Assembly (NCBI GenBank): GCA_017499595.2
Contig: CM039002.1
Span: forward strand, 1,984,001 to 2,048,000
DNA: 64,000 nt
Reading direction: 5' to 3'
Origin: Psilocybe cubensis
Lineage: Eukaryota
Shown here piece after piece: positions 22,201 to 59,793 of this stretch (its first letter is position 1; every line of letters begins with the position of its first letter). A program made the position numbers and the translations under genes. Below the pieces are notes generated by a model. That model ran no database searches. It was given only the letters and a program-made list of their open reading frames with translations, and had not been told where the DNA came from.

Positions 22201-22874
22201 CCAATAAAGGTTCAGACAAAATAAAGAGAGTATTGTAGTTGTCATCAAGTTTTGTAAGCAACGACTTTGAAATTTCTTTAAACATTATTACTAAAACTTT
22301 GCAAAGAACTCCATTGCCATAAGCATTGTTTGTAACCCTTTCTCTATAGATTGATAAGCCCCAAAATATAACCCTCCAAAAAAAACTTACGCGCAAATAG
22401 TCCAAAACTTGAATTTAAATATGTCTTGCAATGTGCTCCCGGTTGTGATACATCTGCAGAAAAAGAAAAAATTCAGTAGTGCTATGGTTGTATAATAAGC
22501 TGGGTAGTCTTGTTGACTGCCCCCCTATTTTATTGCTCCTGTAGCTTCCTACCAAAAGTCAGTAGGTTTTGTAGATTTTTTAGTCATATATGTAGCTTTT
22601 GTAGTCTTCTGTAATTTTAATAAATAGTATAATATTAATCTATAGGTACTACATTGCTAACTATATATTTTTATGCACAATTTAATATTGAGTAAAAATC
22701 ATTAATAGGGCAGTTGGTATCATTAATATCTTTATTAGCCATTCTACTCCGTCCAATTAGCTGACTTTGGATAGTAAGCCTCCATCCAGTCTAACAACAT
22801 ATTATACCTCTATCTAACTCTCTTCAACTTGTCTACTATTAGAATCTGTTAAGTAAATAATAACAGAAAAGATA

Positions 22875-22945
22875 TGGTTAAGACTAGAATCGAACCAATG
22901 ACTCCCAAGTATGTTGCCAATACTTTACCACTGAGCTATATGACC
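22875..22945 (-). pseudogene. tRNA-like sequence (degenerate)
   Basis: GGTCATA-TAGCTCAGTGGTAAAG (A box) ... ATTGG-TTCGATT-CTAGT (T arm/B box) ... ACCA; acceptor and anticodon stems mostly unpaired. Confidence 0.6.
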
Positions 22946-23130
22946 TATAAATAGATTGAGAGTTATATGTCAATATCCACTATTGAATCCATTATTTAGA
23001 CTCTGTGTTGTGTTTGTTAATATTGACATTAGTATTGTTGTTATTCCACTTATTCTATTCCATCTAATTCCATATCATAAAATCCCATAACTCAATTGAC
23101 ATTTACGCTATAGTCCATATTGTTTTGTAA

Positions 23131-23202
23131 AGTCTTATGGTCTACTGGTTAAGGACAGTCTATTTTTGGCTAAGGTTGATGGTTCAATCCTTGAGCAGGC
23201 CA
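23131..23202 (+). pseudogene. tRNA-like sequence (degenerate)
   Basis: TGGTCTACTGGTTAAGGAC (D arm/A box) and GGTTCAATCC (B box) at tRNA spacing. Confidence 0.5.
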
Positions 23203-23771
23203 TTTATTTCGCTCGCAGACTACAAAGTCTATAAGTATATTGTAAGTACTACTGTATGTTGCATGGGCCTTGATTATATAGTTTCCATAAATTACTGTAT
23301 ATTGTGAATACAATGTATTAAACCTATGTAATGAAAATATATTAGATAATGATGTTATGTAAGGCTACTAAGTGCAAAAAAGGCTACTGGAAAGTGTGGT
23401 TACTACGGTGTCTACTGTAATATAGGTGTGTACTACTGAAAAAAACCTTTTCCGCTGATGTATCAAAGGAAGAGTAACACTTGCTTGTCTTTGCAAGAGG
23501 GCAAATAAAACTTTGGTTGAGACACAGCAATACCTCTAAAAATCCTACAGCAGCATCTCAAACGGAATCTGCGGAAATATCAAACATATAATGTTCCACT
23601 TCTGTTGCACAATGCAACATAATAAATGATTCCAAGATACAAAAGTCCTTGCCATTGAATGCAGAAATGATTGGGGCAGGATTAAAGACAGCGGGAATTG
23701 CAGGGTCTCTATTGGAGGAGGCGGGTTCAGGACTTTCCACAGAAACAGGACCAGAAGATGCAGGACTCGTA

Positions 23772-26700
23772 GCTTCCAACCAAATCAAACGGTCAAGGTA
23801 ACTGGTTACAAGGCGATTTGTTATCTTACCTATAATCTTTGAAATGATTCATTTGAGTTACCTGGCCAATTCATTAAGTCTGCCTGCCAGAGTGCTGATT
23901 TATTTTATAACTCTACTACTTGCTTATGTATATTATTTCATTTCATTCTGGTGTGCTTTCATTAACATTAATTCATTTTATTCTGGTGCGATTTCATAAA
24001 TATTAATGCATTTCATTTAACTGGTATGATTAATCTTATCTGTGATTATGCAAGAATCTAGCACTATTTTTGATTCAGGAACTCGGACTAAATATATTAG
24101 AATTAGGTCTGATAGCCATTACATCAGGGCCCTGTCCCTGCCCCTTCCCTTAGCTCCTGGCTCTATAAATAACACTCATCCTATGCTACTTTTGTGCATT
24201 GCTGGCAATGGATTGGGCGCTTTTGGGGGCATTTCTGGACCGTTTCCCTTGGTTTTTTTTGATAGACCTATAGTTTTAAAGTGTCCCAATCCGAATATGA
24301 AATCAAAATTGCAATATCTTTACTCATTATTGTGTAATTAAGCGTACAATGTTTTGGCCAAAAAGCGCACCTTGAATAGCACCCTCCAGGGGTTGGTATG
24401 CACCCTTTTGACTATGCCATTATTTATTATTTATGTTAGACGGAGTACATGCCAAGTTTCAACTCAATTGAAGCAGTGGAACCTATTGAACTAGGATGTG
24501 CACCCTACCCCTCCTCCTACCCCTTGTATAAATGCCTTCCTGATCAGATAAATTCAGGCCCAACTAGGGCTGGGTAGGCGCGCATTATACCAATTTTTAG
24601 AGCCCAAAATCATGGTGCAACTCTAAGATTTAAGGGTACTACCTCCCATCTTCTCCAGAATTTGTGTATTTTATTATACCATAGGATGGGCTCTCAGACC
24701 ATTAAAAAACATGTAGATCTACTACTAACAGTACATAGAGTCCAAAATTTACCCTTAAAAGCCCTCTGCAGCAAGAGAGCATACTGATTCAAGGGGGGGT
24801 ATGAGGACAGGTATGGTAGGTTATTGATCAGGCCATATCTCTACAAATACTTCGTCATAAATCATGTTCTTGACGTCTACAGATACCTATAGATGCCTCC
24901 TAAATATCATTTTCAGTGCCTAAAAAGATCCATCCATTAGATGAGACACTGCAGAGAGAATACCAATCTTCATCAAAATGCACAGTATTTTCGCATTTAC
25001 CATATATAAACATTCAAGATCAGGAAATATAAAAGCAGGATAGTATAGCCCCAAAATGTAGCTTTCCAGAACATCAAGAATGTTGTGCATCGGACCAGTG
25101 GGTGTTGAGATATGGAAAGAAAGGTGTTGAAGAACCCATTAGAGACCCGGATGGATATTGGCCTTTATTTATGCTTTGTTTGTGGTCACCTCTTTGGCCT
25201 TTCTCCGAGATACATTTTGACATATCTCAGCTCATACTAATCGGATTTCTATGCGGCTATATACCACAGATAGGTATCATTTAGGGCTACACAGCCGTAT
25301 AGTTTATGTATTTTATAAGAGTTATCTTTCACATCATATTTCGCTTTTCCTCCATTTTTGAACAATAATGCTTATTCTTCTTGTACCATCTTGTTAAGCG
25401 TTCTGGCCATTTAGCAGCATAAGTATAATATGTAGAGGACCTTGGTAGCTATCTGTGAATGTAAGGTATGTGCATTTTGGTGAAGTATAAGCGGTGATAT
25501 GGTCATATTATGTTGCATATCCAATACCTTCTTATTAGCCTCATAACCAAGGTGTTCCCCATATTCCAGAATGTTTCAAAGGTATGTATTGCATCTGTGG
25601 TACTATATAGAGCAGATTTACATACCTATATGTGCTGGGAATGGCCATTCTATCCCATAATAAAATATACAAATTCTGGAGAAGATGGGAGGTAGTACCC
25701 TTAAATCTTAGAGTTGCACCATGATTTTGGGCTCTAAAAATTGGTATAATGCGCGCCTACCCAGCCCTAGTTGGGCCTGAATTTATCTGATCAGGAAGGC
25801 ATTTATACAAGGGGTAGGAGGAGGGGTAGGGTGCACATCCTAGTTCAATAGGTTCCACTGCTTCAATTGAGTTGAAACTTGGCATGTACTCCGTCTAACA
25901 TAAATAATAAATAATGGCATAGTCAAAAGGGTGCATACCAACCCCTGGAGGGTGCTATTCACATATTATACTTATGCTGCTAAATGGCCAGAACGCTTAA
26001 CAAGATGGTACAAGAAGAATAAGCATTATTGTTCAAAAATGGAGGAAAAGCGAAATATGATGTGAAAGATAACTCTTATAAAATACATAAACTATACGGC
26101 TGTGTAGCCCTAAATGATACCTATCTGTGGTATATAGCCGCATAGAAATCCGATTAGTATGAGCTGAGATATGTCAAAATGTATCTCGGAGAAAGGCCAA
26201 AGAGGTGACCACAAACAAAGCATAAATAAAGGCCAATATCCATCCGGGTCTCTAATGGGTTCTTCAACACCTTTCTTTCCATATCTCAACACCCACTGGT
26301 CCGATGCACAACATTCTTGATGTTCTGGAAAGCTACATTTTGGGGCTATACTATCCTGCTTTTATATTTCCTGATCTTGAATGTTTATATATGGTAAATG
26401 CGAAAATACTGTGCATTTTGATGAAGATTGGTATTCTCTCTGCAGTGTCTCATCTAATGGATGGATCTTTTTAGGCACTGAAAATGATATTTAGGAGGCA
26501 TCTATAGGTATCTGTAGACGTCAAGAACATGATTTATGACGAAGTATTTGTAGAGATATGGCCTGATCAATAACCTACCATACCTGTCCTCATACCCCCC
26601 CTTGAATCAGTATGCTCTCTTGCTGCAGAGGGCTTTTAAGGGTAAATTTTGGACTCTATGTACTGTTAGTAGTAGATCTACATGTTTTTTAATGGTCTGA

Positions 26701-27623
26701 GAGCCCATCCTATGGTATAATAAAATACACAAATTCTGGAGAAGATGGGAGGTAGTACCCTTAAATCTTAGAGTTGCACTATGATTTTGGGCTCTATAAA
26801 TTGGTATATTGCGCGCCTACCCAGCCCTAGTTGGGCCTGAATTTATCTGATCAGGAAGACATTTATACAAGGGGTAGGAGGAGGGGTAGGGTGCACATCC
26901 TAGTTCAATAGGTTCCACTGCTTCAATTGAGTTGAAACTTGGCATGTACTCCGTCTAACATAAATAATAAATAATGGCATAGTCAAAAGGGTGCATACCA
27001 ACCCCTGGAGGGTGCTATTCAAGGTGCGCTTTTTGGCCAAAACATTGTACGCTTAATTACACAATAATGAGTAAAGATATTGCAATTTTGATTTCATATT
27101 CGGATTGGGACACTTTAAAACTATAGGTCTATCAAAAAAAACCAAGGGAAACGGTCCAGAAATGCCCCCAAAAGCGCCCAATCCATTGCCAGCAATGCAC
27201 AAAAGTAGCATAGGATGAGTGTTATTTATAGAGCCAGGAGCTAAGGGAAGGGGCAGGGACAGGGCCCTGATGTAATGGCTATCAGACCTAATTCTAATAT
27301 ATTTAGTCCGAGTTCCTGAATCAAAAATAGTGCTAGATTCTTGCATAATCACAGATAAGATTAATCATACCAGTTAAATGAAATGCATTAATATTTATGA
27401 AATCGCACCAGAATAAAATGAATTAATGTTAATGAAAGCACACCAGAATGAAATGAAATAATATACATAAGCAAGTAGTAGAGTTATGAAATGAATCAGC
27501 ACTCTGGCAGGCAGACTTAATGAATTGGCCAGGTAACTCAAATGAATCATTTCAAAGATTATAGGTAAGATAACAAATCGCCTTGTAACCAGTTACCTTG
27601 TATGAAATGATTTGGTTGGAAGC
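23772..27623. mobile_element. 3852-bp foldback-type non-autonomous element with TA TSD
   Basis: Arms 23794-25433 and 25961-27600 (1640 bp) are near-perfect inverted copies; mirror ORFs all sum to 51394. Outer 16-bp termini GCTTCCAACCAAATCA. TA at 23770-23771 and 27624-27625. Confidence 0.93.
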
Positions 27624-28571
27624 TACTAGTGGATGCAGAAGAAAGAGGGCGGGGGATACCTATTAGTGATGAAGTATAAGATGTGTTTGTACAAATTGAT
27701 GTGATGGATATATCAGAGTCATAGCTATTGTAGATGTCATTGAGACCCGAACCACTTGCAACTAGAGCGACATTTGCGCCTGAACCACTTGCAACTGGGG
27801 CATGATCAATACTAGAACCCCCAGCAATCGGGGCGGCATTGCGCAATCCTTGGCAAGAGACTTGCCTAACCGGAGACACTGATGCATGACTACGTCCCGA
27901 TAACATGCTACCTGAGGATGTGGCAACGGGTGTCTGCTCGTCCAAACATTGGTTATCGGATTCTGGTATTTGCCCAGTACCTGTACAATGTAGACGACAT
28001 CCATGGAGATAGTCTTTGTTCCAACTTTCATCAAGTTTTTCAATGGACAGAGAGCAGTTGTTGGTATGGTGAGGGAGATAGTTCCCTCTTTTCATACAAG
28101 CAATGACCTTGTCTGCATAACACTGATGAATGGTGTTGGTGCTGTCAATACTCCCCACAAGCCAAAAACCATGTTTGGGACCTTTTGGAAACAAAGTTTT
28201 AGCAAGCACTATGTATATGGATAAGAAGAAAAGACGACGTACATATCAAGAGCAATGGAAACTGTCTGTCCAGGTCTGGATGTATGAAATAATTCTTTGG
28301 CCGACTGACAAGCTTTCTAAGACTGGCTAGTGTGAAATCGTTGGGTGAACAGACTGTCAACGGTGTCATTAGATGACCTTGGCCTCCCTCATGGCCTAGG
28401 TGAATGAAGTTGAAAGGCAAAGAGTAGTATTTCTCCAGAAATTCTTTGTATAAGCCACCCACAATCCTCAATTCACTTGGATGCTCGGCGCAAGGGAAAC
28501 TGAATCAATTGCTTGAGTTGATGAATAAAAGAATTATATTTCCTTTTTAAGACTTTTCAGCCTGCACGGTT

Positions 28572-28786
28572 GCACAGGCGAAGGCTTTTTTGTTACAAAC
28601 CAGACTTTTTTGCCATTCCTCAGAATTTTCCTTTTTAGTACTTTTGAAATGATGGCAATATTTTTGTCGACAGGTAGACTTTTTGCTGATGACTCAGGTT
28701 TTCCCAGCTCCGCCCGATATTTTTAAATCACATATGTACGTTATTTAATATTGTCCAATGCGGTCCCCCATACACGGTCCCCTATA
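28572..28786 (-). repeat. Right TIR of outer element
   Basis: Ends ...GCGGTCCCCCATA CACGGTCCCCTATA; inverse of 11533-11726. Confidence 0.9.
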
Positions 28787-29382
28787 GTACCTTAAGCTGG
28801 CTTAGATAATTGATACACCACAAGAAAACGTCAACTTACAGTCAAATGTTTAAAATGTGTATAGTGTCTGACAAAGGTACCCAAAAGCCAAGAAGAGACG
28901 AGAAAACCCGGCCTCCAGTCCCGATGCAAAACAGTCACGGTGAAAGAGTCAACAAGTACAACCGGCGCTTAACTTTCCACATCCTCTGAAAAATTAGGAC
29001 AAATACCAGGATAAATAAATGATATATCAATACCATGTTTCGACGGTTGTTATAACAGACCAACAAAAGCCAACAAACGGTGAACACGAAGGTTTCCATC
29101 GTCCAAAGACTCGAAAGAAAGAAAGAAAGAACGATGATCTTATAATTCTTATTCGACACAAGCCATTGATTTGAATTAAGCGCAGTCTGGACCTGGACCT
29201 GGACCTGGATTGTTTGGAGTACAAAGAGGTATAAAATAACGAAATCGGTATGTAAGATGGAGTTTGAAAAAGCAGGAACGATATCGATAGACCAAAGTAC
29301 TTAGTAGTAGTTATCTCTTAGTCAACACACGATGTCGAGGCTGGTTTCGCCTTATCAAGCACGCTTTCATCGAATCATCGAA

Positions 29383-30820
29383 TCATTGAATGAGGATCAT
29401 CCAAGCCAAAATAAAGTAGAACAAACTTATCATCATCATCGTCATCTTGTCAGTACTAGTCCCATGAAAGATAATGCACAAGGACTCACAGGAGAGGGTA
29501 TACAGCCAGCAAAATGCGCGGCTGGTCGATTTTAGTTCCGTCCAGGAAATTCACAGAGGCTATTGTAAATAAAAAATAAAAATAACTTGTAAGAAAATGC
29601 AAACAACATCAGTAAAGTGAAGTGGACGGACCCCAGATGCACCATGCCCAAGCTAACAGAGCCACAGGCGCGCGTATCCATATAACATGGACAAAGCACG
29701 AGATCAAAGCTGCGATGTCCAATGGGGCGATGCAGTAACCGAGGACGCAGAGGCCCTGGAAGAAAGAGCTGTAATGAACGAGGTCTTATGAGGATTGTCG
29801 GGAAAAAAGCAAAGCAAAGTAACGACGGGTTCTTACACTCTTCCGCCAAGAAGCTGCCATGAACGGTGTAAGCGTTGACTGCCTTTAAAGAAAATGGGAG
29901 GTTTACCTTTGCTTGAATGGTCACGGCCAACGCTCCCATTGAACAGATGACGATGACACTAGAAAAGACACCCAGAGACTGCGATTTCGGAGCCTAAGGT
30001 TGAGAATGAGGATTAGTTGATAACGCACGTTAGTCTGAAGGAAACGCACATTAATACTCAGCATGATTCCTAGACACAAGCAGAGCAGTAAAGGACCCCA
30101 TAGATCCCAGTCTCTGTGGTAACATAACTTGAATATTATCCTCCAAACCAAAGTCGATAACAACCGACCTTAGAACTTCGCGTCCACTAGACCGACGTGG
30201 ATACAGAACTTGAACGAGCTTGGAATAGATGGAGAGCAAGTCCCGGGCCTGTCAGGAAACGTCAATTTAGCAAGGAACCCATCACAGAGGGCATAATACT
30301 CCGCCGTACAATGGTCGTCGTTACAGGCTCATCCAGCGTATCCCCTCCAGAATACCTATCCAAAGTCTTGTGAGCGAGATCCATTGCGCATCACTCAGAA
30401 CGGAGTTGAGATGAGTGCAGCGTACCGCGTCTCCACCTGCACACCTCCCACCGTCTGGCGGTTTGCCGCCCTACCGGCGTTCTGCGAGCTCGAGCTTCCG
30501 ATGTTGCCTGAGAGCGCGGCGGCGGGGTTGGGGCTCGCAGGCGCCCGTCCGTTCGATGTGCCGGGGGCAGCGAGCTGCTCGGGGACAAACGTCGCGCGTC
30601 CCTTGCCCTTGTCTGCAACGGGAGACTGGGCAAGTCCAGGATGAGAGAAGCCGGGAATATCATCGTCGTTCAGGTCGTCGTCGTCATCTAGTACATAATA
30701 CCACGGACGTGTGGTGTGAGTGTGAGCGTGCGGTACAAGTATGCTTTTTCAACCCGGTTACACCGTACCTGCTTGGATGAACTGGGAGCTCGCGGTGAGT
30801 GGTGTCCTGATTGGGTCCAT
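29383..30820 (-). CDS. Yip1-domain Golgi membrane protein (Yip4/YIPF6-like), multi-exon
   Basis: YSGGDTLDEPVTTTI-ARDLLSIYSKLVQVLYP; DWDLWGPLLLCL; SFFQGLCVLGYCIAPL; ILLAVYPLLLFYFILAWMILIQ*. Confidence 0.9.
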
Positions 30821-45921: not shown

Positions 45922-47165
45922 ACGCATCTCCTAGTTATCTTGCGGGGTCTCTTCACTTTCTGTCGCTGTCTTGTTGCTTTGCACCATCTGTATCAATATC
46001 CTGGTCATTTTCATTGACGATTCCATCGCTGGAACAATTCTCCACACCAAATCGGAACTCGTATACCAACTGTAATACAATTACTTCTTCGTACATTCTT
46101 TGGTCACGGTCTCCCAAGCCTGTTAATATTCATTTACTTTGGGATCAAGTCAAGCTGACAACTTCTTTGTTGACAAAGTCGTCCACATTGAAACCTCCTT
46201 CTGGTTGTTTGACAACACCAGCCTTCTCAAGCACGCTGTTGCAAATGCAAAGTTCATTCAGACCCGCCTTGAAGCAAGAAATTGATTGGAGCTTACCTGA
46301 GGGTGTCCGAAATAACCGTTGTGGGTATTTCTGAACAACTCTGAGGATATTTGACGGTTTTTAACCAAGCCTGTTGTATATGACACCTCAGATAAACAGT
46401 ATAGTTTTGGATGCACAGATTCCTACCTCAATATCCTCTCTGGGATACCCGAATTTTTCTTCAATAAACGCCACATTTTTGGTTGATCGTGATTCTTCAG
46501 AGTCGAATCCATTTACGAAAGTTGTTAAACCGTCGAGGAAAGCTTTGGCGTCTGATGATTTGGCCCGCTCTGGGTGTGCGGCAATAAGCCACGATGGCCA
46601 AGGTGTAGGGACTGAACCAATCTGATTTCATTAGCATTAATTTGAAATAACATTTAATCACTTACAAACCGTGCTTCCCCAGCATCGACGAACGGTTTGG
46701 TCGTAAACCACTCCCACATGAATGCACTCGTGGAGCCATCGTTTACAGAGTCAAGCAGACCGCGAATATCATTGTTCACTATTAATTGAATTTATTTAGA
46801 TTATTCCCTGCAAAATACCAGCGTCTTACCTTTAAACTTCAAGTTATCTGTTGGCCACCCTTGTTGGAGCGCCATGACATATGCCATAGTGTAACTCCCG
46901 CTGCGTTGCGGTAAGATTAGCGCATTTCATCATCTTTCACATGAAAATACCTAACCTTCCGTATCTTGAAATACCTATTGTAGTGTCCTGCAGGTCAGAG
47001 ATATTTTTGAACGCCGAATTGGTCCCTGTGATCACTGCCCTGACACACGAATTGTCCAAATATTAGTGTATCTTCTTAACATTAGTCACTCTCGAACATA
47101 CCAGTTTAAAGGGGTTGATACGAAGCTCCCCACTAGTTTGTATGCCTTAGATCCATTGGCTATTC

Positions 47166-47582
47166 TGTGAGATATTCAATACGCAAACGCATCGAGCACT
47201 CGGCGCGCGTACGATAGCCCTGCCCAGGGCATCCACAAACCGCCACAAGTATGTACATCTTATTATCTGTATTATACCTTTTGTTCTGTACATTCTCGGG
47301 CGCTTTCGCCACTATTCCATTTTGGTTTCTCAGTTATTCTACTGTATATACTCCGTGTTTCATAGTTGTTACTATCTATGTACATTAGCTACACGCGCAT
47401 ATAAATGCGCGTGCTTCGTTCTCTCGAACCTCAGTCGTTCTGTTCGAACACGACTGAGGTGAGATTCTATTATTTGTTTCTTATTTACTTCTCACTTACT
47501 TTGTACAAAGCTCGTATTAGGTATTTACTCAATATCAGTCGTTCTGTTCGAACACGACTGAGCTCGTATTAGTTTTCTTACA
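47166..47582 (+). repeat. Copia 5' LTR
   Basis: No difference from 58660-59076 seen by eye. Confidence 0.96.
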
Positions 47583-47594
47583 GGTTATGGGCCC
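47583..47594 (+). promoter_or_regulatory. Copia primer-binding site, half-tRNA-iMet type
   Basis: GGTTATGGGCCC immediately 3' of the LTR, as in Drosophila copia. Confidence 0.8.
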
Positions 47595-50500
47595 CGGCCC
47601 CATTGCTTAAACTTGAATTAAAGCCTTACCTCGTGAATTTCTGTACCTACTGTCAACATGTCTGCTGTAACCACTACTGCCGTGCTCTCGGACACGCTGC
47701 CGTCGTCCATTCCAAAGCTGGATGCTACGGGCGTGAATTGGGCCATCTTCCGGGTCCGTTTCCAGGACGCTGTTGAGGCAAAGGGTCTCTGGGACCACTT
47801 TGACGGCTCGTCGACACGTCCTGAGGTGTCCGACGTGTCTCCTGCTCCTGTGGTTGTACCTGCGACCGCCCCCGAAAGCGCGCCTGCCACCTCTGCCGTG
47901 GTACAAACAACGCCAAAGCCCTCTGCCGAGGACCTTGCCGCACAGCAGAAGTGGGACAAGGACGAGTTGTCGGCGAAGTATCTGCTCACGCAGAAGATTC
48001 CCGACTCGACGCTAATGCGTGTGCACTCGAAGCGATTCGTCCGCGAGCGCTGGGAGGCTATTGTGGCCGAGTATACGGAAAAGGGCGCATATGCGCAGAC
48101 GGATCTTCGAACCCGATTCCTCGAGTCGAAGTGCCCCGACAAGGGCAACGTTCGCGAGTTCCTCGACAACCTGCGAGTGAAACGAGAGGAGCTAGCTTCT
48201 GTCGGTGTTGATATCGACGAAAAAGATTACCGTTCCGTTATCATTTCGTCCCTCCCCATCAACCTGTCCAATTTCGCATCTAACCAACTCGCTTCGGCCC
48301 GTTTGTTTGCCCCGACAAAGACTCTGTCTCCTGACGTCCTTATTTCTCTCATCTCCGAGGAATTCGAGCGTCAGAAGACGCAGCGCAGCCGACGCACGGG
48401 AAAGTCGAAGGACGATGACAAGGACGAGGCCTTGTCCATGGGTGTTGCGTCGTCGAAAGGCAAACCGGCCGGGAAATCGACCTCGAAACGCGACTCGAAG
48501 CCGCGCGGCGCCTGTTATAACTGTGGCGAGAAGGGGCATTTCAAGCGAAACTGCCCGAAGCCGCTGAAAGGCGAGAAGTCGAATGACAACTGGGCAGGCA
48601 ACAAGAAGGCCGGCGACGTACACGCCGTGCTCGAAACGGAGTCTGACAGCGACGGTGTGCATGCTGTGTTCATGGCGACTGTTTCGGAGGCAGACTCTCT
48701 GCCGGATCTCCAGTCTGTGTCGAAGACGGATTCGGAGAGTGAGGGGGAGGCGGATGATGAGGGTGAGGTCGCGTTGATGGACGGCGATGACTTTTCGGAG
48801 GTGGGAAGTGATGCAGGCGACTTTGATGACCCCGCGTGGGACTCTGATGAGTTTGCAGAGCTGTTGGACGACGTCGAGGAGGGTGCGCACGCTATAATCG
48901 ATGAGATTAGTGCGACGCTCGATGCTGCAGCCGCTAATCACGCACCTCGAGTGGAGATCTATGACTCCGGGTCCACTCGCCACATCTCGCCCTACCGTGA
49001 GGACTTCGATACCCTCACGGAAACCTCTCCCCTATCCCTACGTGCTGCAAACAAAGGCGAATTCTGTGCTACGGGGGTTGGATCAATGACTATTGATGTC
49101 CCAGACGGGGTAGATGTCAATAAACTGACACTTACCGAGGTCCTTTACTCGCCGGAGGTAGGGTACACCCTCATTTCCATCGGACGGCTCGACCAGAATG
49201 GCTTTTCAGCCACGTTCGGCAATGGCAAGTGCACCATTACCGGCCCCGAGGGCGAGCGCGTGGGCAGCATCCCCATCAACTCGAAGGGGATGTATCGCGT
49301 GGCACATGAGGCCGACGCAGCCAATGCTGTGGTCGAGCAGATCACGCTCGACCAGTTCCACCGTCGAATGGGCCATATTGCGCCCGAAACGGCGAAGCGC
49401 CTTGTCGAAAAGGGCTTCGTGACTGGTGTTCGTCTTGCCACAGCCTCGAACAACGAGGCCTTCTTTTGCGAATCATGCGTCTATGCAAAAGCGACGCGGC
49501 GGCCGGTGGCGAAGGAACGAGGTGGTGAGCGAGCGGCGGCGTTTGGCGACGAGATCCATTCAGATCTGTGGGGACCTGCACCGGTAGAAACAAAGGGTGG
49601 TAAGCGCTACTACGTCACGTTTACAGATGACGCTACGCGACTCACCCGATTGTACCTGCTCCGTCTCAAATCCGACACCTTCGAAGCCTATCGAGAGTAC
49701 GAGGCTTGGTGCGAGACCCAGTTTGGTGTTCGCATCAAGTGCCTGCACTCAGATAAGGGTGGCGAATATGAAGGGAAGGCATTTGTTGCTCACCTGAAGA
49801 CCCGAGGCACCATTCAGAAACAGACCGTCCACGACACACCGCAGTTTAACGGCGTCGCGGAACGGCGTAACCGCACCATCATCGAGCGTGTGCGTGCGCT
49901 TCTGCATGCCAGTGGCCTTCCGAAATCATTGTGGGGCGAGGCATGTCGTCACGTCGTCTGGTTATTGAACCGCACGTCCACGAAGGCGCTCAAGGGTGTG
50001 ACACCCTACGAGGCCGCATTTGGCAAGAAACCCGACCTCAGCGAGCTGCGCGAGTTCGGCGAAAAGGTGTGGGTGCGACTGGAGACGGATGCTATGAAGC
50101 TGGGTGGGCGGGTGAAGGAGGGACGATGGCTGGGCGTTGACGAGAAATCAAAGGGTGTGAGGGTGTACTGGCCGGATAAAAAGACAGTGACGGTGGAGCG
50201 TAATGTCTATTATGACAAAACACTCTCGTCAGTCTCTCGTCTCGAGGGGGAGGAATGGGAAATAGTCGAGGCGAAGACAGACGGACTCACCGACAACCAG
50301 GCTGCAAATCAGCCTATCGAAACTCCCGCAGAACCTCAGGAAACCCCTACCGCATCCCAAGCAACACCTCGCGTCGAAATCGACCCCGATAACGCCACAG
50401 ACAGTGCCTCAGAGCCCGAGGCACGTCCAAAACGTGCTCGAAAGCCCACCCGACGCATCCGCGACATCCTCGAAGGCGTCGGTGTCGCATCCCATCGCCC

Positions 50501-50952
50501 GAGTGACCCCAGAATCACCAGGGGCATCACGGTACCCTCCACCGAACCTCCTGCTCCCTCGTCTTCACGATCCGTCGATGTTGAGGGGGAGGATGCATCC
50601 CTCCTTGCCGAATACAATGTCGTCGAGTACGACGACGTATATGCACTGGTGGCTGATGTTGCGGAAGCAGAGGCGCTCGAACCACGGTCGTTGTCGGAGG
50701 CGAAAAGGCGCCCCGACTGGTTGCTGTGGAAGGCTGCAATGGATGAGGAAATGGAACTGCTGAAGAAAGCAGGGACGTGGGAGATTGTTGACGCACCTGA
50801 GAACACGAATATTGTCGGTTCGAAATGGGTGTTTCGCGCGAAAAAGGACGCCGCGGGCAATGTCGTACGCTACAAGGCGCGTCTCGTCGCGCAAGGCTTC
50901 TCCCAGGTGCCGGGGTGTCGACTATTTCGACACGTTTGCGCCCGTTTCGCGT

Positions 50953-51402
50953 TGTCAGGGCAACACTATAATCAGTGTGACAAGGCCACCAACAAAGATT
51001 AAGCAAGAAAGAGAAAGAGAGAGCAGAGGGAGAGTAAGAGAGCAAAGAGAGAATAAGAGAGTGAGAGAGATTCAATGGTTCTAAGAGATCACACCAATGA
51101 TAGTGGATATCCTAAGAGATTGAAGCTGAAGCTACAGCTACCTACAAGTCCAGTATTTATACTCTACAGCTATTCTAGAATATTCCCTACATTACATCAT
51201 AAAGGAAGGTTAAAGAATAAAAGTGACATCATATAGAAAAAGGATGAGTAAGACTAGGAATCATATAGAATTTACTAGAAAGAAGTGGAGCAAGAAGGCT
51301 GTGATGAAAGAAATAAACTATCTAATCAGATAATTGATAAGATAATGAAAGGATAAGATAATTCTGTGAAGATAAAGAGGGGAAACTGGAGAAACCCTGA
51401 CA
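50953..51402 (-). repeat. Gypsy 3' LTR
   Basis: No difference from 56896-57345 seen by eye. Confidence 0.96.
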
Positions 51403-54400
51403 TCACCCCCTCTCTAAGGCACATTTTCCACAATGTGCACATGGATGGGTTAGTTTAGAGGGTTTAAGAAGAGGAGGAGGTTCAGTAAAGTTAATAATAG
51501 GAGTGAAAGAAAGTCTATCAAAGGTCACAGCAGAAATCCTTCTAGGTGCTGAAGGATGTTTGGCATGGAAGTCCTTGATAGCCTTAGAAGCATTTTTCAA
51601 ATGCTCTGCAGGCTCCCAAGTGCATTCTTCATTAGGATAGTTCTTCCACTTGACCAAATATTGAAGTTTGTTTCTAAAAAGTCTGCTGTCCTTGATAAAT
51701 TCAACTTCCCACTCAGGATTTTCTCCTTGAATGACAGGAGGTGGTCTAGAAGGAGGCTTTCTTCCTACAATATCTGGGTAATAAGGTAGAAGTTTAACCA
51801 CATTGAACACTGGATGGATTTTCATGGTAGATGGCAGCTTAAGCTCATAGGCATTAGGGCTAATAACTTTGGTAATTTTGTAAGGCCCATATCTTTTATC
51901 ATCCAATTTCTTGGAGGGCCTATCAGTTTTGAGGTCCTTGCCATCTAACCATACCAAATCCCCAACTTTGTACTGAGTTGGAGTACCTCTGTGTCTATTA
52001 TAGAATTTAGCCATATCATCAGCAGCTTTTCTAAGTGCAGACTCTGCTTCTTTTCTGGCTTCTTCCATATTTTTCACAAAGGTATCCACAGTGTCCATTT
52101 TACTATCTCTAAGGGGTTCAGTGCCCATTCTGGGATGTCTGCCATTATTGAGCATGAATGGTGTCTGCCTGGTTGAAGCCTGAACTCTATTGTTATAAGA
52201 GAATTCAGCTAGAGCTAACCATTCAACCCAATCATCTTGTCTATGGTTTATAAAGAGTCTAAGATACTGCTCAATTTCTTGGTTAACTCTTTCAGTCTGA
52301 CCATCAGTTTGGGGATGGTAGGCTGTAGATGAGGCTGTCTGGATACCAAGTATTGAGTTGAGTTCTTTCATAAACCTTGAGACAAACTGTGGACCTCTAT
52401 CACACAGAATTTTAATGGGTAAGCCATGGTGTTTCCAGATATAATCTCTGTATAGTCTGGCTGTCCCTTCAGAAGTGACTTCATCTGTAGTAGGGATAAT
52501 GTGGATCATTTTACTAAGTCTATCCACAACCACCATAATGGCATTATACCCTTGACATTCTGGTAACCCCATAATAAAGTCCACAGAGATGCATTGCCAG
52601 ACATCAGAGGGAATCTCAGTAGGAATTAAAAGGCCAAGAGGTTTGGCTGGAAAGGTTTTGGTTCTGTTGCATCTATCACAACCTCTGGTATAGGCTGCAA
52701 TAAAATGTGACATTCCTGGCCACCAATAATTCCTAGAGACTAGCTCAATTGTCTTCCATTTCCCTGGATGTCCAGCAATGAAGGCATCATGGTGCAGTTC
52801 CACAATCTTTCTTCTAAGATCTTTGTCCTTGGGAACATACACCTTCCCCCTGTAGAGAATAAGGCCTTGTTCTTCTGACCATTCCTGTCCTTCAATCTTC
52901 TTGGTAGAAGATTTCTTGAGCTCCTGAACTGCCTTGACCACCTTTTCATCCATCTCCTTAGCTTCTCTAATCTTCTTAAGAAGATCATTTTCTGCACCAG
53001 TAATGGTAGCATGGCCCTGCTTGAGAGCCTGGATTTTAAAGTAGGAAGGTTTGAGGAGAACTACATTTTGGTTATCATTCTCTCCCTTTTTATGATCTGG
53101 TCTCCTAGACAAAGCATCTGGCTTAAGAGATCTTTTACCAGGCCTATGATGAAGAGTAAAATCAAATCTGGACAGGAAGAGTGACCATCTGGCTTGCCTT
53201 CTGCTGAGCTTTTGGGCAACCATAAAGTACTCTAAGTTTTTGTGGTCTGTCCAAATCTCAAAGGAATGTTGGGTTCCTTCAAGATAATGTCTCCATTCAT
53301 CTAGTGCTCTGATAATAGCCAGCATCTCTTTGTCATGGATCTCATAATTCCTTTCTACTTCAGATAGACTCTTAGACATAAAGGCTACAGGATGCCATTT
53401 CCCATCTGATCCTTCCTGAGATAAAACAGCCCCAGTAGCATAATCTGAACTGTCTGCTTCAACTTTATATGGCTTGTTATCATCAGGGAAAATCAAGACA
53501 GGTGAAGAAGTGACTTTCTTCTTTAACTGGTCAAAGGCTTCCTGCTGTCTAAGACTCCATCTCCAGACTGTTCCTTTCTTTGTCAATTCATGAAGGGGCT
53601 TAGCAATGTCTGCAAAATCCTCTATGAACCTTCTATAAAAATTAACAAATCCCAAGAATGATTGGACATCCTTGACATTTTCAGGTTCAGGCCATTTAGA
53701 AACTCCCTCTACCTTGACAGGATCCATCTCAATCCTGCCTTGTGAAATGATTAGTCCAAGATATTCAATCTTTTCCTTTTCAAATTCACATTTCTCTGCT
53801 TTAAGGTAGAGTTTGTTCTGTTCTAAGATTTGCAGAACTTGCTTGACTACCTCTCTATGATGATCAAGAGTCTCAGTGAAAATTAAAATGTCATCCATGT
53901 AGACAATGACAACATTTCCATCAATGAGCTCAATAAAGATATCATTCATCATAGTTTGGAAGGTAGCAGGACTATTGGTTAAACCAAAGAACATGACCAA
54001 TGGTTCAAACAGCCCTCTATTGGTTCTAAAGGCTGCTTTCCATTCATCTCCCTTTTTGATTCTGACATTGTTAAATCCCCACCTAACATCAAGTTTGGTG
54101 AAGTATTTGGCTTTGCTGAGTTTGGTGATGATGTCAGAAATCAATGGAAGGGGGTAGGAGTTCTTGATGGTCATTTCATTCAGTTTCCTATAGTCCTGGA
54201 CAAGCCTAAGAGATCCATCCTTCTTCTTGACAAAGAATACAGGGGAGGCCATAGGTGACTTGGAGGGTCTAATCCTGCCAGACTTCAGATTTTCCTCTAA
54301 AAAGGCATCAAGTTCCTTTTGTTCATTGGGAGAAAGAGGATAAATCTTGGATCTGTAAGGTTCAGAACCAGGTTTCAGCTCAATAGCATGATCCCAAGGC

Positions 54401-55290
54401 TTTCTGTCTGGTAGCCTATCAAAAGATTCCTTTGAAAAAACACCTTTAAACTGATGATAGTGCTTAGGAACAGTTTCTTCAAAGGTTTTCTTAGGGGAAT
54501 CAGCTTGCTGATGAGACTCTTCTGCTAATCTTTGAGACATAGTAGAAGTAGCATTAATAGACTGCTTCTGAGGATGAAGGTATGAGATAAAAATTCTATC
54601 CTCAGGCTCAATCTCAGAATCAGAAGAATCTTCAATAGAATCATCTTCTTCTTCATCAAATTGAGGGAGTTTCCTCCTTTTGACTGCAGCTATTCTCTGC
54701 CTCTTTCTTCTGGCTCTTTTGGCTTCCATTTGGCAGTCAGAGGGACATCTAATAAACTGGACATCCCCTGTCTTCCAATCAACATCTGGATTATGGTGCC
54801 AAAGCCAAGTATGTCCAATGATAGCAGATTTGTCTCCCAAGTCACAAACAGCAAAGGTGGCCCTTTCTGTATGGTTTTTGTGTACCATAATTAAGTCTAC
54901 TTCCTCATGGATAGAGCCACTCTTGTTGAGAGTACCATCAACATTATAGACTGGAATGGCTCTAGGAAGTTTCCTTGTGTTGAGATTATGATACTTCACA
55001 AAACCAGAATGCAGAAAGAGGCCAGTAGCTCCAGAATCAAGCAAAGCATCAACAGATAACCTTTTCTCTGTGTCCATTGTCTTTAAGATGACAGACAAAT
55101 GGGTAGAGGTTTTAGGATTATGGTTGAGGATGTAGATCTTTTCAGGGAAGGTAGAAAGAGAGGAAGAAGAAGACATGATTTCTGCACCAGAATCTGAAGA
55201 CTGAGGATCAAGTCTGTCAATTTCATTTTCTAGTACATTAAATCTATTCCATTGGGACATGTCTTTCACCAATGGTGCTTCTAAAAATTT
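51403..55290 (-). CDS. Gypsy Pol (PR-RT-RH-IN-chromodomain), in the -1 frame relative to gag
   Basis: LLDSGAT; YMDD; EADSSDYATG; H..GHPG..CDRC; ISVDF, CDRGPQF, TDGQTER; GPY; chromodomain EWEVEFI...YLVKWKNYPNEECTWEP. Confidence 0.96.
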   Translation of the reverse strand, partial: KFLEAPLVKDMSQWNRFNVLENEIDRLDPQSSDSGAEIMSSSSSLSTFPEKIYILNHNPKTSTHLSVILKTMDTEKRLSVDALLDSGATGLFLHSGFVKYHNLNTRKLPRAIPVYNVDGTLNKSGSIHEEVDLIMVHKNHTERATFAVCDLGDKSAIIGHTWLWHHNPDVDWKTGDVQFIRCPSDCQMEAKRARRKRQRIAAVKRRKLPQFDEEEDDSIEDSSDSEIEPEDRIFISYLHPQKQSINATSTMSQRLAEESHQQADSPKKTFEETVPKHYHQFKGVFSKESFDRLPDRKPWDHAIELKPGSEPYRSKIYPLSPNEQKELDAFLEENLKSGRIRPSKSPMASPVFFVKKKDGSLRLVQDYRKLNEMTIKNSYPLPLISDIITKLSKAKYFTKLDVRWGFNNVRIKKGDEWKAAFRTNRGLFEPLVMFFGLTNSPATFQTMMNDIFIELIDGNVVIVYMDDILIFTETLDHHREVVKQVLQILEQNKLYLKAEKCEFEKEKIEYLGLIISQGRIEMDPVKVEGVSKWPEPENVKDVQSFLGFVNFYRRFIEDFADIAKPLHELTKKGTVWRWSLRQQEAFDQLKKKVTSSPVLIFPDDNKPYKVEADSSDYATGAVLSQEGSDGKWHPVAFMSKSLSEVERNYEIHDKEMLAIIRALDEWRHYLEGTQHSFEIWTDHKNLEYFMVAQKLSRRQARWSLFLSRFDFTLHHRPGKRSLKPDALSRRPDHKKGENDNQNVVLLKPSYFKIQALKQGHATITGAENDLLKKIREAKEMDEKVVKAVQELKKSSTKKIEGQEWSEEQGLILYRGKVYVPKDKDLRRKIVELHHDAFIAGHPGKWKTIELVSRNYWWPGMSHFIAAYTRGCDRCNRTKTFPAKPLGLLIPTEIPSDVWQCISVDFIMGLPECQGYNAIMVVVDRLSKMIHIIPTTDEVTSEGTARLYRDYIWKHHGLPIKILCDRGPQFVSRFMKELNSILGIQTASSTAYHPQTDGQTERVNQEIEQYLRLFINHRQDDWVEWLALAEFSYNNRVQASTRQTPFMLNNGRHPRMGTEPLRDSKMDTVDTFVKNMEEARKEAESALRKAADDMAKFYNRHRGTPTQYKVGDLVWLDGKDLKTDRPSKKLDDKRYGPYKITKVISPNAYELKLPSTMKIHPVFNVVKLLPYYPDIVGRKPPSRPPPVIQGENPEWEVEFIKDSRLFRNKLQYLVKWKNYPNEECTWEPAEHLKNASKAIKDFHAKHPSAPRRISAVTFDRLSFTPIINFTEPPPLLKPSKLTHPCAHCGKCALERG

Positions 55291-56390
55291 TTCTTTTCCT
55301 CATCTTTCTGCTCCTTGCCTTCCAAGATTAATTTCCCAAAGTAGTCAGCCAGTTCTTCATGGGTCATAGCATTGATGTTAACTGATGACCTGCAGTTTAC
55401 AGCCTTATGACCAGGTTTTCTGCACTTGAAGCAAACAATTGGCCTAACTGACTTCCATCCAGAGTCAACCTCCATGGGAACTACATCTGGTTGCTTTGCC
55501 TGAGCACCAAAGGTCCTTGAGCTGCTGTTGGAAAAGACTGGAGGATTTGGAGTAGGCTTAGGAACAGCCTTGGGAGTTGGGGCTTTAAGGAAGGGAGAAG
55601 AAGAGGAGGAGGAAAGAGACTTGGTAAAGGCCTCACTCTGTCTCCACTGCCTATCTAGCCTAGTACTCCATTTAATCCATCCATCCAAGGTTTTGGGCAT
55701 GTCAGGAACATAGTAGACTGCATTCCTAAGATTTTCATTAAGCCCAGCCTTGAATTGGTCTACCAAAGCAGCATCATTATACCCAGTATCTGAGATCAGA
55801 GCCCTGAAGCTAGCAACATACTCATCAGCAGTCTGTCTGCCTTGCTTGAGCATGTGCATTTTATGCTTAGCTGTGTTGGAGGGGTCTGGATCTGCAAACA
55901 CTTCCCTAAATTCATAAACAAAATCAGCCCAAAGACCTTCTTGGGACTGAGCATTGTCTATTACTTTAGTCTTCTCATATGCCCACTTCCCAGCAGTACC
56001 TCCTTTCATATGAGATAGAGCACAAATAACTTTCTGAAAGTCATCTGTAATCCCTTTCCCATAGAAATATAATTTAAGCTGACTGAGGAAGTTTTCTGCC
56101 TTCTCCATAGAACCATCAAATGGATCTGGAGGTGAGACTTTAATGGCAGAGTGTGAACAGGAAGGGGCAACATGAGGAGTAGGGAAAGAGTGAATATCTA
56201 GAGCAGCAGGTGGTGGTGGTGGTGGTGGTGATGGTGACTGACTGACTGGTTGCTGAGGGTGTGGTGGAGTGGATAATGACTGCTGCTGCTGTCTAAGAAA
56301 ATTCAACTCTTGGGTAAGGAGCTGGACCTGATGCATGAGCTCTTCCACAGAAGGAGTGGTGGGAGGCAATTGGGAGGGGTCCATGTCCAT
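55281..56390 (-). CDS. Gypsy Gag
   Basis: PPDPFDG; LKQGRQTADEYVASF; FKAGL; PMEVD; Zn knuckle CFKCRKPGHKAVNC. Confidence 0.95.
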   Translation of the reverse strand: MDMDPSQLPPTTPSVEELMHQVQLLTQELNFLRQQQQSLSTPPHPQQPVSQSPSPPPPPPPAALDIHSFPTPHVAPSCSHSAIKVSPPDPFDGSMEKAENFLSQLKLYFYGKGITDDFQKVICALSHMKGGTAGKWAYEKTKVIDNAQSQEGLWADFVYEFREVFADPDPSNTAKHKMHMLKQGRQTADEYVASFRALISDTGYNDAALVDQFKAGLNENLRNAVYYVPDMPKTLDGWIKWSTRLDRQWRQSEAFTKSLSSSSSSPFLKAPTPKAVPKPTPNPPVFSNSSSRTFGAQAKQPDVVPMEVDSGWKSVRPIVCFKCRKPGHKAVNCRSSVNINAMTHEELADYFGKLILEGKEQKDEEKKNF

Positions 56391-56895
56391 GGGTAGGGGT
56401 AGGTAGGCTCTCTGATGTGTGTGTGGGAGAAGCTATCTACTGAAAGTGCCCTTGAAACTATACTAAGTATTCTAAAAAAAATATCTATCTACTGGATACC
56501 CAGTTGTCACACCACTCAGGGCTCTAAACCTAGGATCACAGGGTTACTGGATATTTCCTAGACCACCAAAAACAGAACACTAGTAGGACTGTGTCTGCCC
56601 CAACAGTTGGTATCCCTATCTACTAAGTTCACACACAGCACACAACAGAGAGTAGGAAAGATGATGAGCCAAAGGTCTTGAGGAAAGGTCTTGAGGAAAG
56701 GTTTTGAGGAGGATGTTGAAGATTGGTGGAGATGTAGAGATTGGTAAGAAGATTGGTGAAGAGGTTGATGAAGAGGTTGGTGGGTTGGAAGTGGAGGAAG
56801 AAGGTTGAGGTGATGGTGTTGAAGAGGTTGAAGAGGTGAAGAGTTTGGTGTTGAAAGAGAGATGGTGGAGTTGTCTTGAGAGAGCTTCAATCTTC

Positions 56896-57345
56896 TGTCA
56901 GGGCAACACTATAATCAGTGTGACAAGGCCACCAACAAAGATTAAGCAAGAAAGAGAAAGAGAGAGCAGAGGGAGAGTAAGAGAGCAAAGAGAGAATAAG
57001 AGAGTGAGAGAGATTCAATGGTTCTAAGAGATCACACCAATGATAGTGGATATCCTAAGAGATTGAAGCTGAAGCTACAGCTACCTACAAGTCCAGTATT
57101 TATACTCTACAGCTATTCTAGAATATTCCCTACATTACATCATAAAGGAAGGTTAAAGAATAAAAGTGACATCATATAGAAAAAGGATGAGTAAGACTAG
57201 GAATCATATAGAATTTACTAGAAAGAAGTGGAGCAAGAAGGCTGTGATGAAAGAAATAAACTATCTAATCAGATAATTGATAAGATAATGAAAGGATAAG
57301 ATAATTCTGTGAAGATAAAGAGGGGAAACTGGAGAAACCCTGACA
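56896..57345 (-). repeat. Gypsy 5' LTR
   Basis: Contains TATAAATA (57104-57097 on minus strand); followed by a non-tRNA PBS. Confidence 0.96.
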
Positions 57346-58659
57346 CGCGTCTTGCATCGATCCGGGCAGTACTTGCTGTTGCTGCCATCAACGACTACGA
57401 AATTCAGCAAATTGACATCAAAGGAGCGTACCTGAATGGAGTCCTCAAGTCCGACGAAATCATCTACATGCGACAAGCGCCTGGTTACGCTGTCGCACCC
57501 TCATCCTCCTCTACCCCGGTCTATCGTCTTCGAAAAGCCCTGTATGGTTTGAAGCAGGCGGGTCGGCGTTGGTACGAACGGCTCGTCGAGATAATGGTGA
57601 AGCACCTCGGCTTCTCGAGGTGCGCGGTCGACCAGGCGGTGTTCGTGAGGAAGGGAGGGCGAGGAGACTTGGTCATCGTGTTGGTACACGTTGATGATTG
57701 CACAATCGTGGCAACGCGGACTGAGCTCATAGCTGAGTTCAAAATTGCGATTAGTCAGCACGTTGATATCACGGATCTAGGCAACATACACTGGCTCTTG
57801 GGCATCGAGATCATCCGCGACCGCGCTGCGCGTCGCATCTACCTCTCCCAACGATCGTATATCGACTCGATAATTCGTCGATATGGCCTTCAGGACCTCA
57901 AGCCCGTTTCCCTGCCTATGGATCCGAACGTACGACTCACATCGACACAATCCCCGACTACCACAGCTCAATTTGCAAAGATGCGTGATGTCCCGTATCA
58001 TGAAGCGGTCGGATCGCTCATGTACGCGTCACTCGGTACGCGTCCCGACATTGCCTACGCTGTCCAGACCGTCTCGCGTTTCTCGACGAACGCCGGCGAA
58101 CCTCATTGGGAAGCGGTAAAGCGAATTTTTCGCTATCTGAAGGGCACGAAGGATCTCTGGCTGTCATATGGAGGACAGCAGAGGGAGTTAGCAGGGTACG
58201 CAGATGCGGATGGGAGCATGGCCGAGGATCGGCATGCTATCAGCGGGTACGCTTTTATTTTACACGGTGGCGCAATCTCCTGGTCGGCGAAGCGACAGGA
58301 GATTATTTCACTCTCAACAACCGAATCCGAGTATGTTGCAATTACTCACGCCGCGAAGGAAGGATTATGGCTACAATCCCTCCTCAAGGACCTCTTCCCA
58401 TTGACTCTCGACACCACCGTCTTATTTTCCGATAACCAATCCGCCATCGCGCTCACGAAAGATCATCAATATCACGCTCGCACGAAACATATCGACATAC
58501 GCTTTCATTTCATTCGATGGATCATTGAAAACGGTTCGATTCGCCTTGTCTATTGCCCGACCAACGACATGGTCGCCGACGCATTCACGAAGGCGCTTCC
58601 GTCGCCTAAAGTCAAGCATTTCGCGGCCGAGCTTGGGCTCGTATCCGTTTGAGGGGGAG

Positions 58660-59076
58660 TGTGAGATATTCAATACGCAAACGCATCGAGCACTCGGCGC
58701 GCGTACGATAGCCCTGCCCAGGGCATCCACAAACCGCCACAAGTATGTACATCTTATTATCTGTATTATACCTTTTGTTCTGTACATTCTCGGGCGCTTT
58801 CGCCACTATTCCATTTTGGTTTCTCAGTTATTCTACTGTATATACTCCGTGTTTCATAGTTGTTACTATCTATGTACATTAGCTACACGCGCATATAAAT
58901 GCGCGTGCTTCGTTCTCTCGAACCTCAGTCGTTCTGTTCGAACACGACTGAGGTGAGATTCTATTATTTGTTTCTTATTTACTTCTCACTTACTTTGTAC
59001 AAAGCTCGTATTAGGTATTTACTCAATATCAGTCGTTCTGTTCGAACACGACTGAGCTCGTATTAGTTTTCTTACA
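58660..59076 (+). repeat. Copia 3' LTR
   Basis: Preceded by PPT at 58651-58659 and followed by TSD TATTC. Confidence 0.96.
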
Positions 59077-59793
59077 TATTCCAGTGATAAGAGGATCCGT
59101 TAATGCACTATGTGTTTGAGGTTATTATGCAGACCTCTTGCTGTCTTTGAATGAGACGTACATTGCGATGTCAATCTCATCGTTGGTCAGCCGTGATATC
59201 AATTGGCCGGTTCCACCTGTTTCAAACTTTCAGAGATGTTGCGACCCATAGTCAACTCTCACTCACTTGGGCATTCTACAAGAGTAAAAGTCTTGCCAGC
59301 ATCCTGCTCAGCGAATTGAAGGAGAGGGCTTGAGAAGTGCTCTCGGACTAGTGGTGTTGAGATATTTTGTGTTGTAAATCATAGGAGTTTATGCTCACCG
59401 TATCCAATTCTAAGAGGCATATTAACTTGGAAGACGGGGGTAGAAATCGTATGAGAGAGAATGCTCACCAATCTTTATCATCACGCAAATGCACCAGTCA
59501 GCTTAATCTAATCTTAGATGGTTATCACGTTGTAACATGATGCGAAATGTCATTCCCCGTGATTTTTCCGTAACGTGTTTTGGGTGAGGGCGTGACAAGC
59601 TCGTGTTCTAATTTGAACCAAACTCAAGCTAAACTTGAGCTTTCGCCTCCTTTCAGAGTTGTATGATCAGCTGCGGATTGACGGTATTTCACCTTGCTGC
59701 ACACATCTTAAAACTCAGAACTCTTTCCAAACTTAGGGTCGACTTATAATACCATTCCTGAGTCATCGCTTGGACCACCCATGACTGATTTCA

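Follow-up and report, generated by a model that had tools for sequence, protein, structure and literature searches.

The closest described counterparts of the element reported here are CG-deficient, CG-to-TG hypermutated transposons of Basidiomycetes, which Clutterbuck reportedly described in 2017 (Fungal Genet Biol 104:16). In the portions available to us, three other papers report CpG-biased C-to-T change in basidiomycete transposons (PMC3318451, PMC4352252, PMC6980582); one finds the bias in repeats of Tricholoma matsutake (PMC6980582) and another ties the signature to a Masc2-type Dnmt1 (PMC4352252). Similarly partial sources place 5-methylcytosine (5mC) of Pleurotus mostly at CpG in repeats (PMC6191308) and assign to Basidiomycota the CpG enzymes DNMT1-RFD and DNMT5 (PMC13297926), which agrees with the statement in a preliminary description of this locus that basidiomycete 5mC falls mainly on CpG in repeats. 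Here we describe a Ty3/Gypsy retrotransposon (hereafter Gypsy) nested in a Copia element within a 64-kb stretch of Psilocybe cubensis contig CM039002.1 (the window, analyzed at its full length). Gypsy shares host group, dinucleotide, and presumed cause (5mC at CpG, then deamination) with the hypermutated transposons as far as their published descriptions were accessible. However, those are described there as mutated, inactivated copies, whereas Gypsy, with none of its roughly 267 expected CpG left, has open gag and pol frames, identical long terminal repeats (LTRs), and about 35-40 copies, and its Arg is recoded to AGR (AGA or AGG) where Arg in hypermutated copies is destroyed.

Other known systems resemble Gypsy in narrower respects. 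In retrotransposons of Microbotryum under TpCpG hypermutation, the target is scarce at sites whose mutation would change the protein (Hood et al. 2005, as relayed in part by PMC3318451), and the likeness lies in a lineage short of the hypermutation target, a shortage that points to counter-adaptation to a sequence-specific genome defence. That shortage, in the account available, is partial, trinucleotide, and in Pucciniomycotina, whereas Gypsy belongs to Agaricales and has lost every CpG, be it synonymous, non-synonymous, or non-coding. Horns et al. 2012, in the part accessible, examined three Agaricomycotina species and report no pattern like repeat-induced point mutation (RIP) in them. DNA transposons carrying TET/JBP occur in the same fungi and also bear on cytosine methylation, but according to the available text they encode an enzyme removing the mark (PMC12730594, PMC13297926), while Gypsy is without a site for writing it. 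Tobacco Tnt1, an LTR retrotransposon, can still be induced under host silencing, and symmetrical sites are few in the region of its LTR that was analyzed; yet, in the portion available, it retains heavily methylated CG/CHG sites and its escape is credited to internal sequences (PMC3316501). In the full-text literature searched, we came across no transposon lacking all CpG that was intact, autonomous, and high-copy, and no paper that deals with methylation or with transposons in P. cubensis; Clutterbuck's 2017 study may describe similar elements. CpG depletion of basidiomycete transposons is already known. The novelty is that an element with no CpG at all is intact and present in high copy: a process until now recognized by its casualties is seen here in its final state, in a live element.

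Gypsy (50953-57345) contains no CpG in 6393 bp at 41.0% G+C, and therefore no CG context on either strand, where base composition predicts about 267 (observed/expected ratio, o/e, of 0.00). The absence extends to every part of the element: 13.4 CpG were expected in each LTR, 19.1 in the leader, 60.0 in gag, and 158.3 in pol, and none was observed in any of them, including U3 of the LTR, a part that at the 5' end exists only as DNA. The CpG-free gap runs from a CG at 50950, inside the left copy of the CGCGT target-site duplication (TSD), to a CG at 57346, at the start of the right copy, and thus coincides with the ends of Gypsy to the base. Elsewhere in the window CpG-free gaps reach 364 bp at most, and the 44,820 other segments of 6393 bp have a minimum of 68 CpG and a median of 325. 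CpG o/e outside Gypsy was 1.21 in the left part of Copia, 1.41 in its right part, and 0.94 in the window minus the element, which excludes a background-level ratio. Since Copia is CpG-rich, Gypsy stands apart from it, and the possibility raised in the preliminary description that all transposon families are equally CpG-free does not apply.

The composition of Gypsy is unlike that of a decaying repeat. TG and CA are in surplus by 79 and 58 dinucleotides, a sum of 137 where 267 CpG are missing, and the enrichment of CT and AG is stronger still. TpA o/e was 0.69, CpA o/e 1.14-1.22, and GpC o/e 0.81, and the signature of ascomycete-type RIP (CpA-to-TpA bias with TpA excess) was absent from Gypsy. 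Arg is encoded 92 times, always by AGR and never by CGN, and TCG, CCG, ACG, and GCG are each absent. Avoidance also reaches across codon boundaries, with no NNC-GNN junction where about 91 were expected: C ends 316 codons before non-G codons but none before G, where T, A, or G takes its place (third positions overall are 37% T and 26% A). Copia has the opposite pattern, with CGN in 102 of 111 Arg codons and 209 C-G junctions. At the protein level, Gypsy retained Arg in 25 of the 31 columns with consensus Arg in CGN-using relatives (1 His, 1 Gln). Compared with distant protein relatives, it has 7 R-to-K and 0 K-to-R replacements, and its Lys and Arg shares are 10.0% and 6.0% versus 6.4% and 8.3%.

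Deamination of CGN yields Cys, Trp, stop, His, or Gln but never AGR, so AGR-only Arg is not the result of recent decay. Likewise, gag and pol have no stops, and the C-to-T damage pattern of decayed copies is absent. Taken with the identical LTRs (450/450) and a TG/CA surplus below the number of missing CpG, these results imply that CpG was not lost by decay after insertion. The CpG-free state is an old, selected equilibrium of the lineage. The preliminary description's view of an intact, young, wholly CpG-free Gypsy inside a CpG-rich Copia was therefore borne out, as was its claim that this is not decay after insertion, and the codon check that it proposed for Arg, Ser, Pro, Thr, and Ala found all CG-containing codons missing.

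Its orientation had to be corrected, since Gypsy, an intact Ty3/Gypsy chromovirus, occupies the minus strand. The coordinates of its parts are collected in Table 1. The LTRs read TGTCAGGG..CCCTGACA, with CGCGT on both sides of the pair. Pol has the order protease (PR), reverse transcriptase (RT), RNaseH, integrase (IN), SH3, and chromodomain, with landmarks that include the protease DSG at residue 88 (LLDSGATG, 86-93), the RT YMDD at 467, and the integrase HHCC. Pfam also placed RT_RNaseH at residues 606-712 and a Tf2-type SH3 (SH3_Tf2-1). Catalytic residues sit in invariant columns of a 48-sequence alignment, and the protease D88 is invariant in all 48; a Pfam protease match is absent in the Gypsy copy, while PF08284/PF13975 are present in some relatives. 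Gag matched Ty3_capsid (E=3.3e-10), Retrotrans_gag (E=3.7e-9), and zf-CCHC (E=3.5e-4). It ends in AAA AAT TTT TAG, and a -1 shift at the AAATTTT heptamer enters the pol frame exactly (..EKFLEAP..), which suggests that gag and pol are joined by -1 frameshifting.

Table 1. Features of Gypsy and of the enclosing Copia, in positions of the window.
Feature	Positions	Strand	Details	Source
Enclosing Copia	47166-59076	+	LTRs 417 bp (47166-47582, 58660-59076), 100% identical; TSD TATTC; CpG o/e 1.2-1.4	
Left TSD copy	50948-50952		CGCGT; Copia sequence; last CpG before Gypsy	
3' LTR	50953-51402	-	450 bp; TG..CA; 0 CpG; 36% G+C	
pol frame	51403-55299	-	1298 aa; 0 internal stops	
Putative polypurine tract	51406-51415	-	AGAGAGGGGG; just upstream of 3' LTR; overlaps pol end	
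Chromodomain	51562-51711	-	pol residues 1197-1246; E=2.5e-15	Pfam
Integrase	52312-52827	-	Integrase_H2C2 (825-882) and core rve (902-996)	Pfam
Reverse transcriptase	53746-54231	-	RVT_1; pol residues 357-518	Pfam
gag	55281-56390	-	counted from the first Met, residue 15 of open frame 55281-56432; CCHC knuckle and Ty3 capsid-like domain	
Heptamer AAATTTT	55284-55290	-	X XXY YYZ form; directly 5' of gag stop	
Putative self-priming primer-binding site	56883-56893	-	11 nt; starts 2 nt past 5' LTR; reverse complement of LTR 276-286	
5' LTR	56896-57345	-	100% identical to 3' LTR	
Complement of primer-binding site in 5' LTR	57060-57070	-	3' LTR counterpart 51117-51127; putative transcript start (R)	
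Right TSD copy	57346-57350		CGCGT; first CpG past Gypsy	

The domains and a putative priming site resemble those of a known group. A tRNA-type (TGG-type) primer-binding site is absent next to the 5' LTR, and the window holds no tRNA gene for comparison. Instead, one exact 11-nt stretch pairs element positions 453-463 with LTR 276-286 (about 0.004 such matches expected by chance, an estimate), although no exact self-complementarity begins at the first base after the LTR. An 11-nt LTR-complementary site is what we take to be the arrangement of self-priming Tf1/sushi elements. These chromoviruses include Tf1 and Tf2 of fission yeast and MAGGY-type chromodomain integrases, and Gypsy resembles them in its Ty3/Gypsy domain order, Tf2-type SH3, C-terminal chromodomain, and 11-nt site matching the LTR interior. 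It differs in having gag and pol split by the putative -1 frameshift, whereas Tf1 is a single open reading frame. CpG absence as a feature of the Tf1/sushi group was not found in the literature searched. The top sequence matches of the chromodomain in the PDB were CDY1, CDYL, SUV39H1, and HP1. Its EWEVE and KWKNY align with EFEVE and RWKGY of CDY1, setting W/W/Y opposite F/W/Y, and these positions also align with those of other chromodomains that read H3K9me; by this alignment it carries the aromatic cage positions of the HP1/CDY type. The preliminary description proposed that the chromodomain may direct Gypsy into other transposons.

A host open reading frame of the window matches a P. cubensis protein at 100% identity. 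Raw whole-genome reads of another strain (X20) allowed the copy number to be estimated. Mean depth was about 1490 in the Gypsy interior, compared to 37 in the unique flanks and 40 in Copia, a ratio that implies roughly 35-40 Gypsy copies. Most of the 72,438 reads on Gypsy were at least 99% alike (45,429, or 63%), while 32% were 95-99% alike and 5% were 90-95% alike; the latter two classes imply that older copies are also present in the genome. Hundreds of reads run from the LTR ends into differing sequence, indicating many insertion sites. Judged by these reads, Gypsy is a live member of a high-copy family that has transposed recently and repeatedly, and this family probably continues to generate insertional differences between cultivated strains of P. 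cubensis. As a separate observation, a 618-Mb assembly under another organism label (X10) has contigs over most of 50952-56923, with 1-11 differences per 281-1330 bp and without the host flanks. We considered and rejected horizontal transfer for these contigs, which are most simply explained by low-coverage P. cubensis DNA from which only a repeat of about 40 copies assembled.

The surrounding nest is also young. Copia splits a 90-nt exon (47101-47160 and 59077-59106) of a multi-exon host gene on the minus strand. Position 47160 is joined to 59077 in 30 genomic reads of X20 and in a spliced contig (depth 123) from X15, which the spliced host-gene contigs prove to be an RNA run. The Copia site is thus empty in other strains, which implies that the nest of Gypsy in Copia is very recent and that the host gene is uninterrupted there. 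At 50909-50912 the Copia of the window has one extra G in a G run relative to 18 of 28 X20 reads. Without this G, Gypsy, and one TSD copy, Copia is a single open frame of 1538 aa, and with the G the frame is broken 20 codons past the junction. The extra G may be genuine and shift the frame, or it may be a homopolymer error in the assembly.

Relatives of Gypsy were used to relate CpG content to decay. At E ≤ 0.001, 2391 of 7998 scored candidates were relatives of pol, the best being 84-85% identical; the named ones come from Lyophyllum shimeji, at about 55% identity. Among the matches listed, metagenome relatives had 40-60% identity and those from the genome_contigs and viral_contigs sets were no closer than about 60%. 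The comparison of CpG with homologous elements that the preliminary description had proposed was carried out on the DNA of 101 listed loci at 32-61% amino acid identity and leaves out the closest relatives (P0003-P0052, 60-85%). No locus among the 101 combined intactness with a complete lack of CpG. In 17 loci the aligned pol was free of stops, and their CpG o/e was 0.63-1.29, and every one of the 46 loci with o/e below 0.6 had at least two stops. Accordingly, CpG o/e and stops per aligned residue were negatively correlated across all loci (Spearman rho -0.69). The commonest class of stop was TGA opposite an Arg of Gypsy, which occurred 81 times among the 72 loci that use CGN and 32 times among the 28 that use AGR. 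These decayed, CpG-poor relatives behave like the CG-hypermutated basidiomycete transposons.

Two groups of relatives approach the codon use or the CpG content of Gypsy. The AGR-using loci form a clade of 28 metagenome members (L089, L051, L096, L060, L048, and 23 others) in which AGR makes up 80-99% of Arg codons and o/e is 0.13-0.67. The clade is Lys-rich (11.5% K), and all of its members are broken. In a FastTree phylogeny of 219 of 222 sequences (three were dropped for low occupancy), read from the tree parts listed, it was not the sister of the Gypsy clade, which suggests that CpG-poor coding may have arisen more than once. The other group is a 6.65-Mb record (G001, the source of locus L083) with at least 105 Gypsy pol matches between about 4.38 and 6.65 Mb and about 41% G+C. 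The 13 loci examined in it (L083, L102-L113) had 0-47 CpG over 5.5-9 kb, for example 0 in the 5910 bp of L106 and 2 in the 8962 bp of L083, together with 24-43 stops that were mostly TGA. Such dead, nearly CpG-free copies imply that mutation alone can erase CpG completely, but it leaves wrecks. Regarding the labels of these records, G001 is designated a bacterial chromosome from a metagenome-assembled genome but looks like mislabelled eukaryotic, probably fungal, repeat-rich DNA. Loci L081 and L082 (59-61% identity, o/e 1.2-1.3, 0 stops) are intact-looking Gypsy pol relatives that sit on short contigs of a Pyrinomonadaceae-labelled metagenome-assembled genome and are likely fungal contamination.

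We favor the explanation, with a probability of about 0.6, that CG-directed, methylation-linked mutation combined with selection for function gave rise to a high-copy live lineage without CpG. On this route, the DNMT1-type and DNMT5 enzymes of Agaricomycetes would methylate CpG in repeats, and methylated CpG would mutate fast to TpG/CpA. Copies bearing CpG would be silenced and then decay, notably through CGA-to-TGA stops, and transposition would be kept only by variants with tolerated CpG replacements, namely AGR, NNT or NNA before G-initial codons, and a CpG-free LTR and leader. The CpG-free end state would be absorbing, as it offers neither a substrate for CG methylation nor fast CpG decay, and such a state fits the recent burst of the family. 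Methylation-linked mutation is the presumed driver, and Gypsy is presumably unmethylated now. If the host methyltransferases are CG-specific, Gypsy would be without their target context. A further step, which we advance tentatively, is that total CpG avoidance may be an adaptation hiding an autonomous element from CpG-only methylation and thereby enabling its burst. Parts of such a 'stealth' retrotransposon would be AGR-only Arg, a CpG-free promoter and leader, and self-priming without a tRNA-complementary site.

Several observations weigh against the favored route. The only further young transposon observed, Copia, is rich in CpG, and CpG loss therefore does not hold throughout the P. cubensis genome. 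The nearest DNA-bearing neighbors of the Gypsy clade, among those listed, use CGN. X20 reads differed from the window at 868 places, including 264 C>T and 287 G>A but only 99 A>G and 101 T>C. Among the 40 difference rows listed, all in the flanks and Copia, the corresponding sums were 9 versus 21. This dominance of C>T/G>A beyond the flanks and Copia implies that other Gypsy copies carry an excess of C-to-T change outside CpG, which reflects either a second C-to-T process acting on the family or misread polarity. Finally, RNA was scarce: X15 had one 153-nt contig on Gypsy at depth 4.4, compared to 123 for the host gene and 16-30 for contigs on the 3' part of Copia, although contig depth gauges expression poorly. 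Six short contigs on Gypsy came from X14, whose status as RNA is a guess.

Some of these observations bear on the possibility that CpG loss was a by-product without benefit. In this case hypermutation and purifying selection would have stripped CpG while silencing proceeded by small RNAs, by H3K9 methylation (the niche of the chromodomain), or by non-CG methylation, so that the CpG-free state protects from decay only. The very low amount of RNA from a family of about 35-40 copies in the sole proven RNA run, the non-CpG C>T/G>A excess among copies, and the dead CpG-free copies of G001, which reached zero via mutation alone, all speak for it. Nevertheless, we consider it unlikely: identical LTRs and the 63% of reads at least 99% alike indicate recent, repeated transposition, the nest lies in an insertion that is polymorphic among strains, and the RNA evidence depends on contig depth. 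Recent horizontal arrival of a sequence that had become CpG-free in a different host, one where CpG loss is far stronger, before invading P. cubensis is quite improbable. It would account for a young and uniform family, for the large number of relatives with 60-85% identity that assemblies of unknown origin contain, and for the contrast of 41% G+C and 0 CpG with the resident Copia and host genes. However, the older copies evident among the reads argue against it, as does the presence of the stretch plus flanks in runs under several organism labels, and it merely shifts the question of origin to another host.

Selection apart from DNA methylation appears highly improbable, whether at the RNA level (CpG-sensing defence, stability, or translation) or as drift toward A+T. 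Gypsy is indeed A+T-rich with T-ending codons, and its preference for Lys over Arg relative to distant relatives is in line with such a pressure. Yet A+T drift cannot give zero CpG in a sequence that has a GpC o/e of 0.81 and in which codons often end in C except before G, and selection on RNA does not explain why U3 is also CpG-free. To our knowledge, no CpG-sensing RNA defence has been described in fungi. An assembly or sequencing artefact, for which we found no point in favor, can be set aside almost entirely, because reads and contigs of several independent runs match Gypsy at ≥ 99% and the flanks carry normal CpG. Methylation-linked mutation under selection for function remains our preferred explanation.

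CpG loss in methylated repeats is usually a scar of successful defence, but when completed in a functional element it may become immunity, given that 0 CpG leaves neither CG methylation nor fast CGA-to-TGA decay. If an unmethylated Gypsy does reside in a methylated Copia, this one locus would set side by side what is and what is not under the control of CG methylation in Agaricomycetes, and would document the endpoint of an arms race with a defence that reads a 2-bp motif. Should the tentative stealth adaptation also hold, the family would be a natural test case for CG methylation as a restraint on transposons in mushroom-forming fungi. In practice, filters that use CpG o/e to recognize 'old, dead' repeats would misjudge families like Gypsy.

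Elsewhere in the window, an A+T-rich block at 21000-28000 has 32-41% G+C, CpG o/e of 0.15-0.54, TpA near 1.0, and few long open reading frames. Within it lies an inverted repeat with arms of 1670 bp (23765-25433 and 25961-27630) that are 99.2% identical and separated by a 527-bp spacer; their mismatches (12 substitutions and 1 indel) are without a CpG pattern. No transposon homology was found in 10500-29500 by tblastn with the Gypsy and Copia proteins or by tblastx against the relatives' loci (L001-L101). A tandem array of about 20 units of 13 bp occupies 14306-14578.

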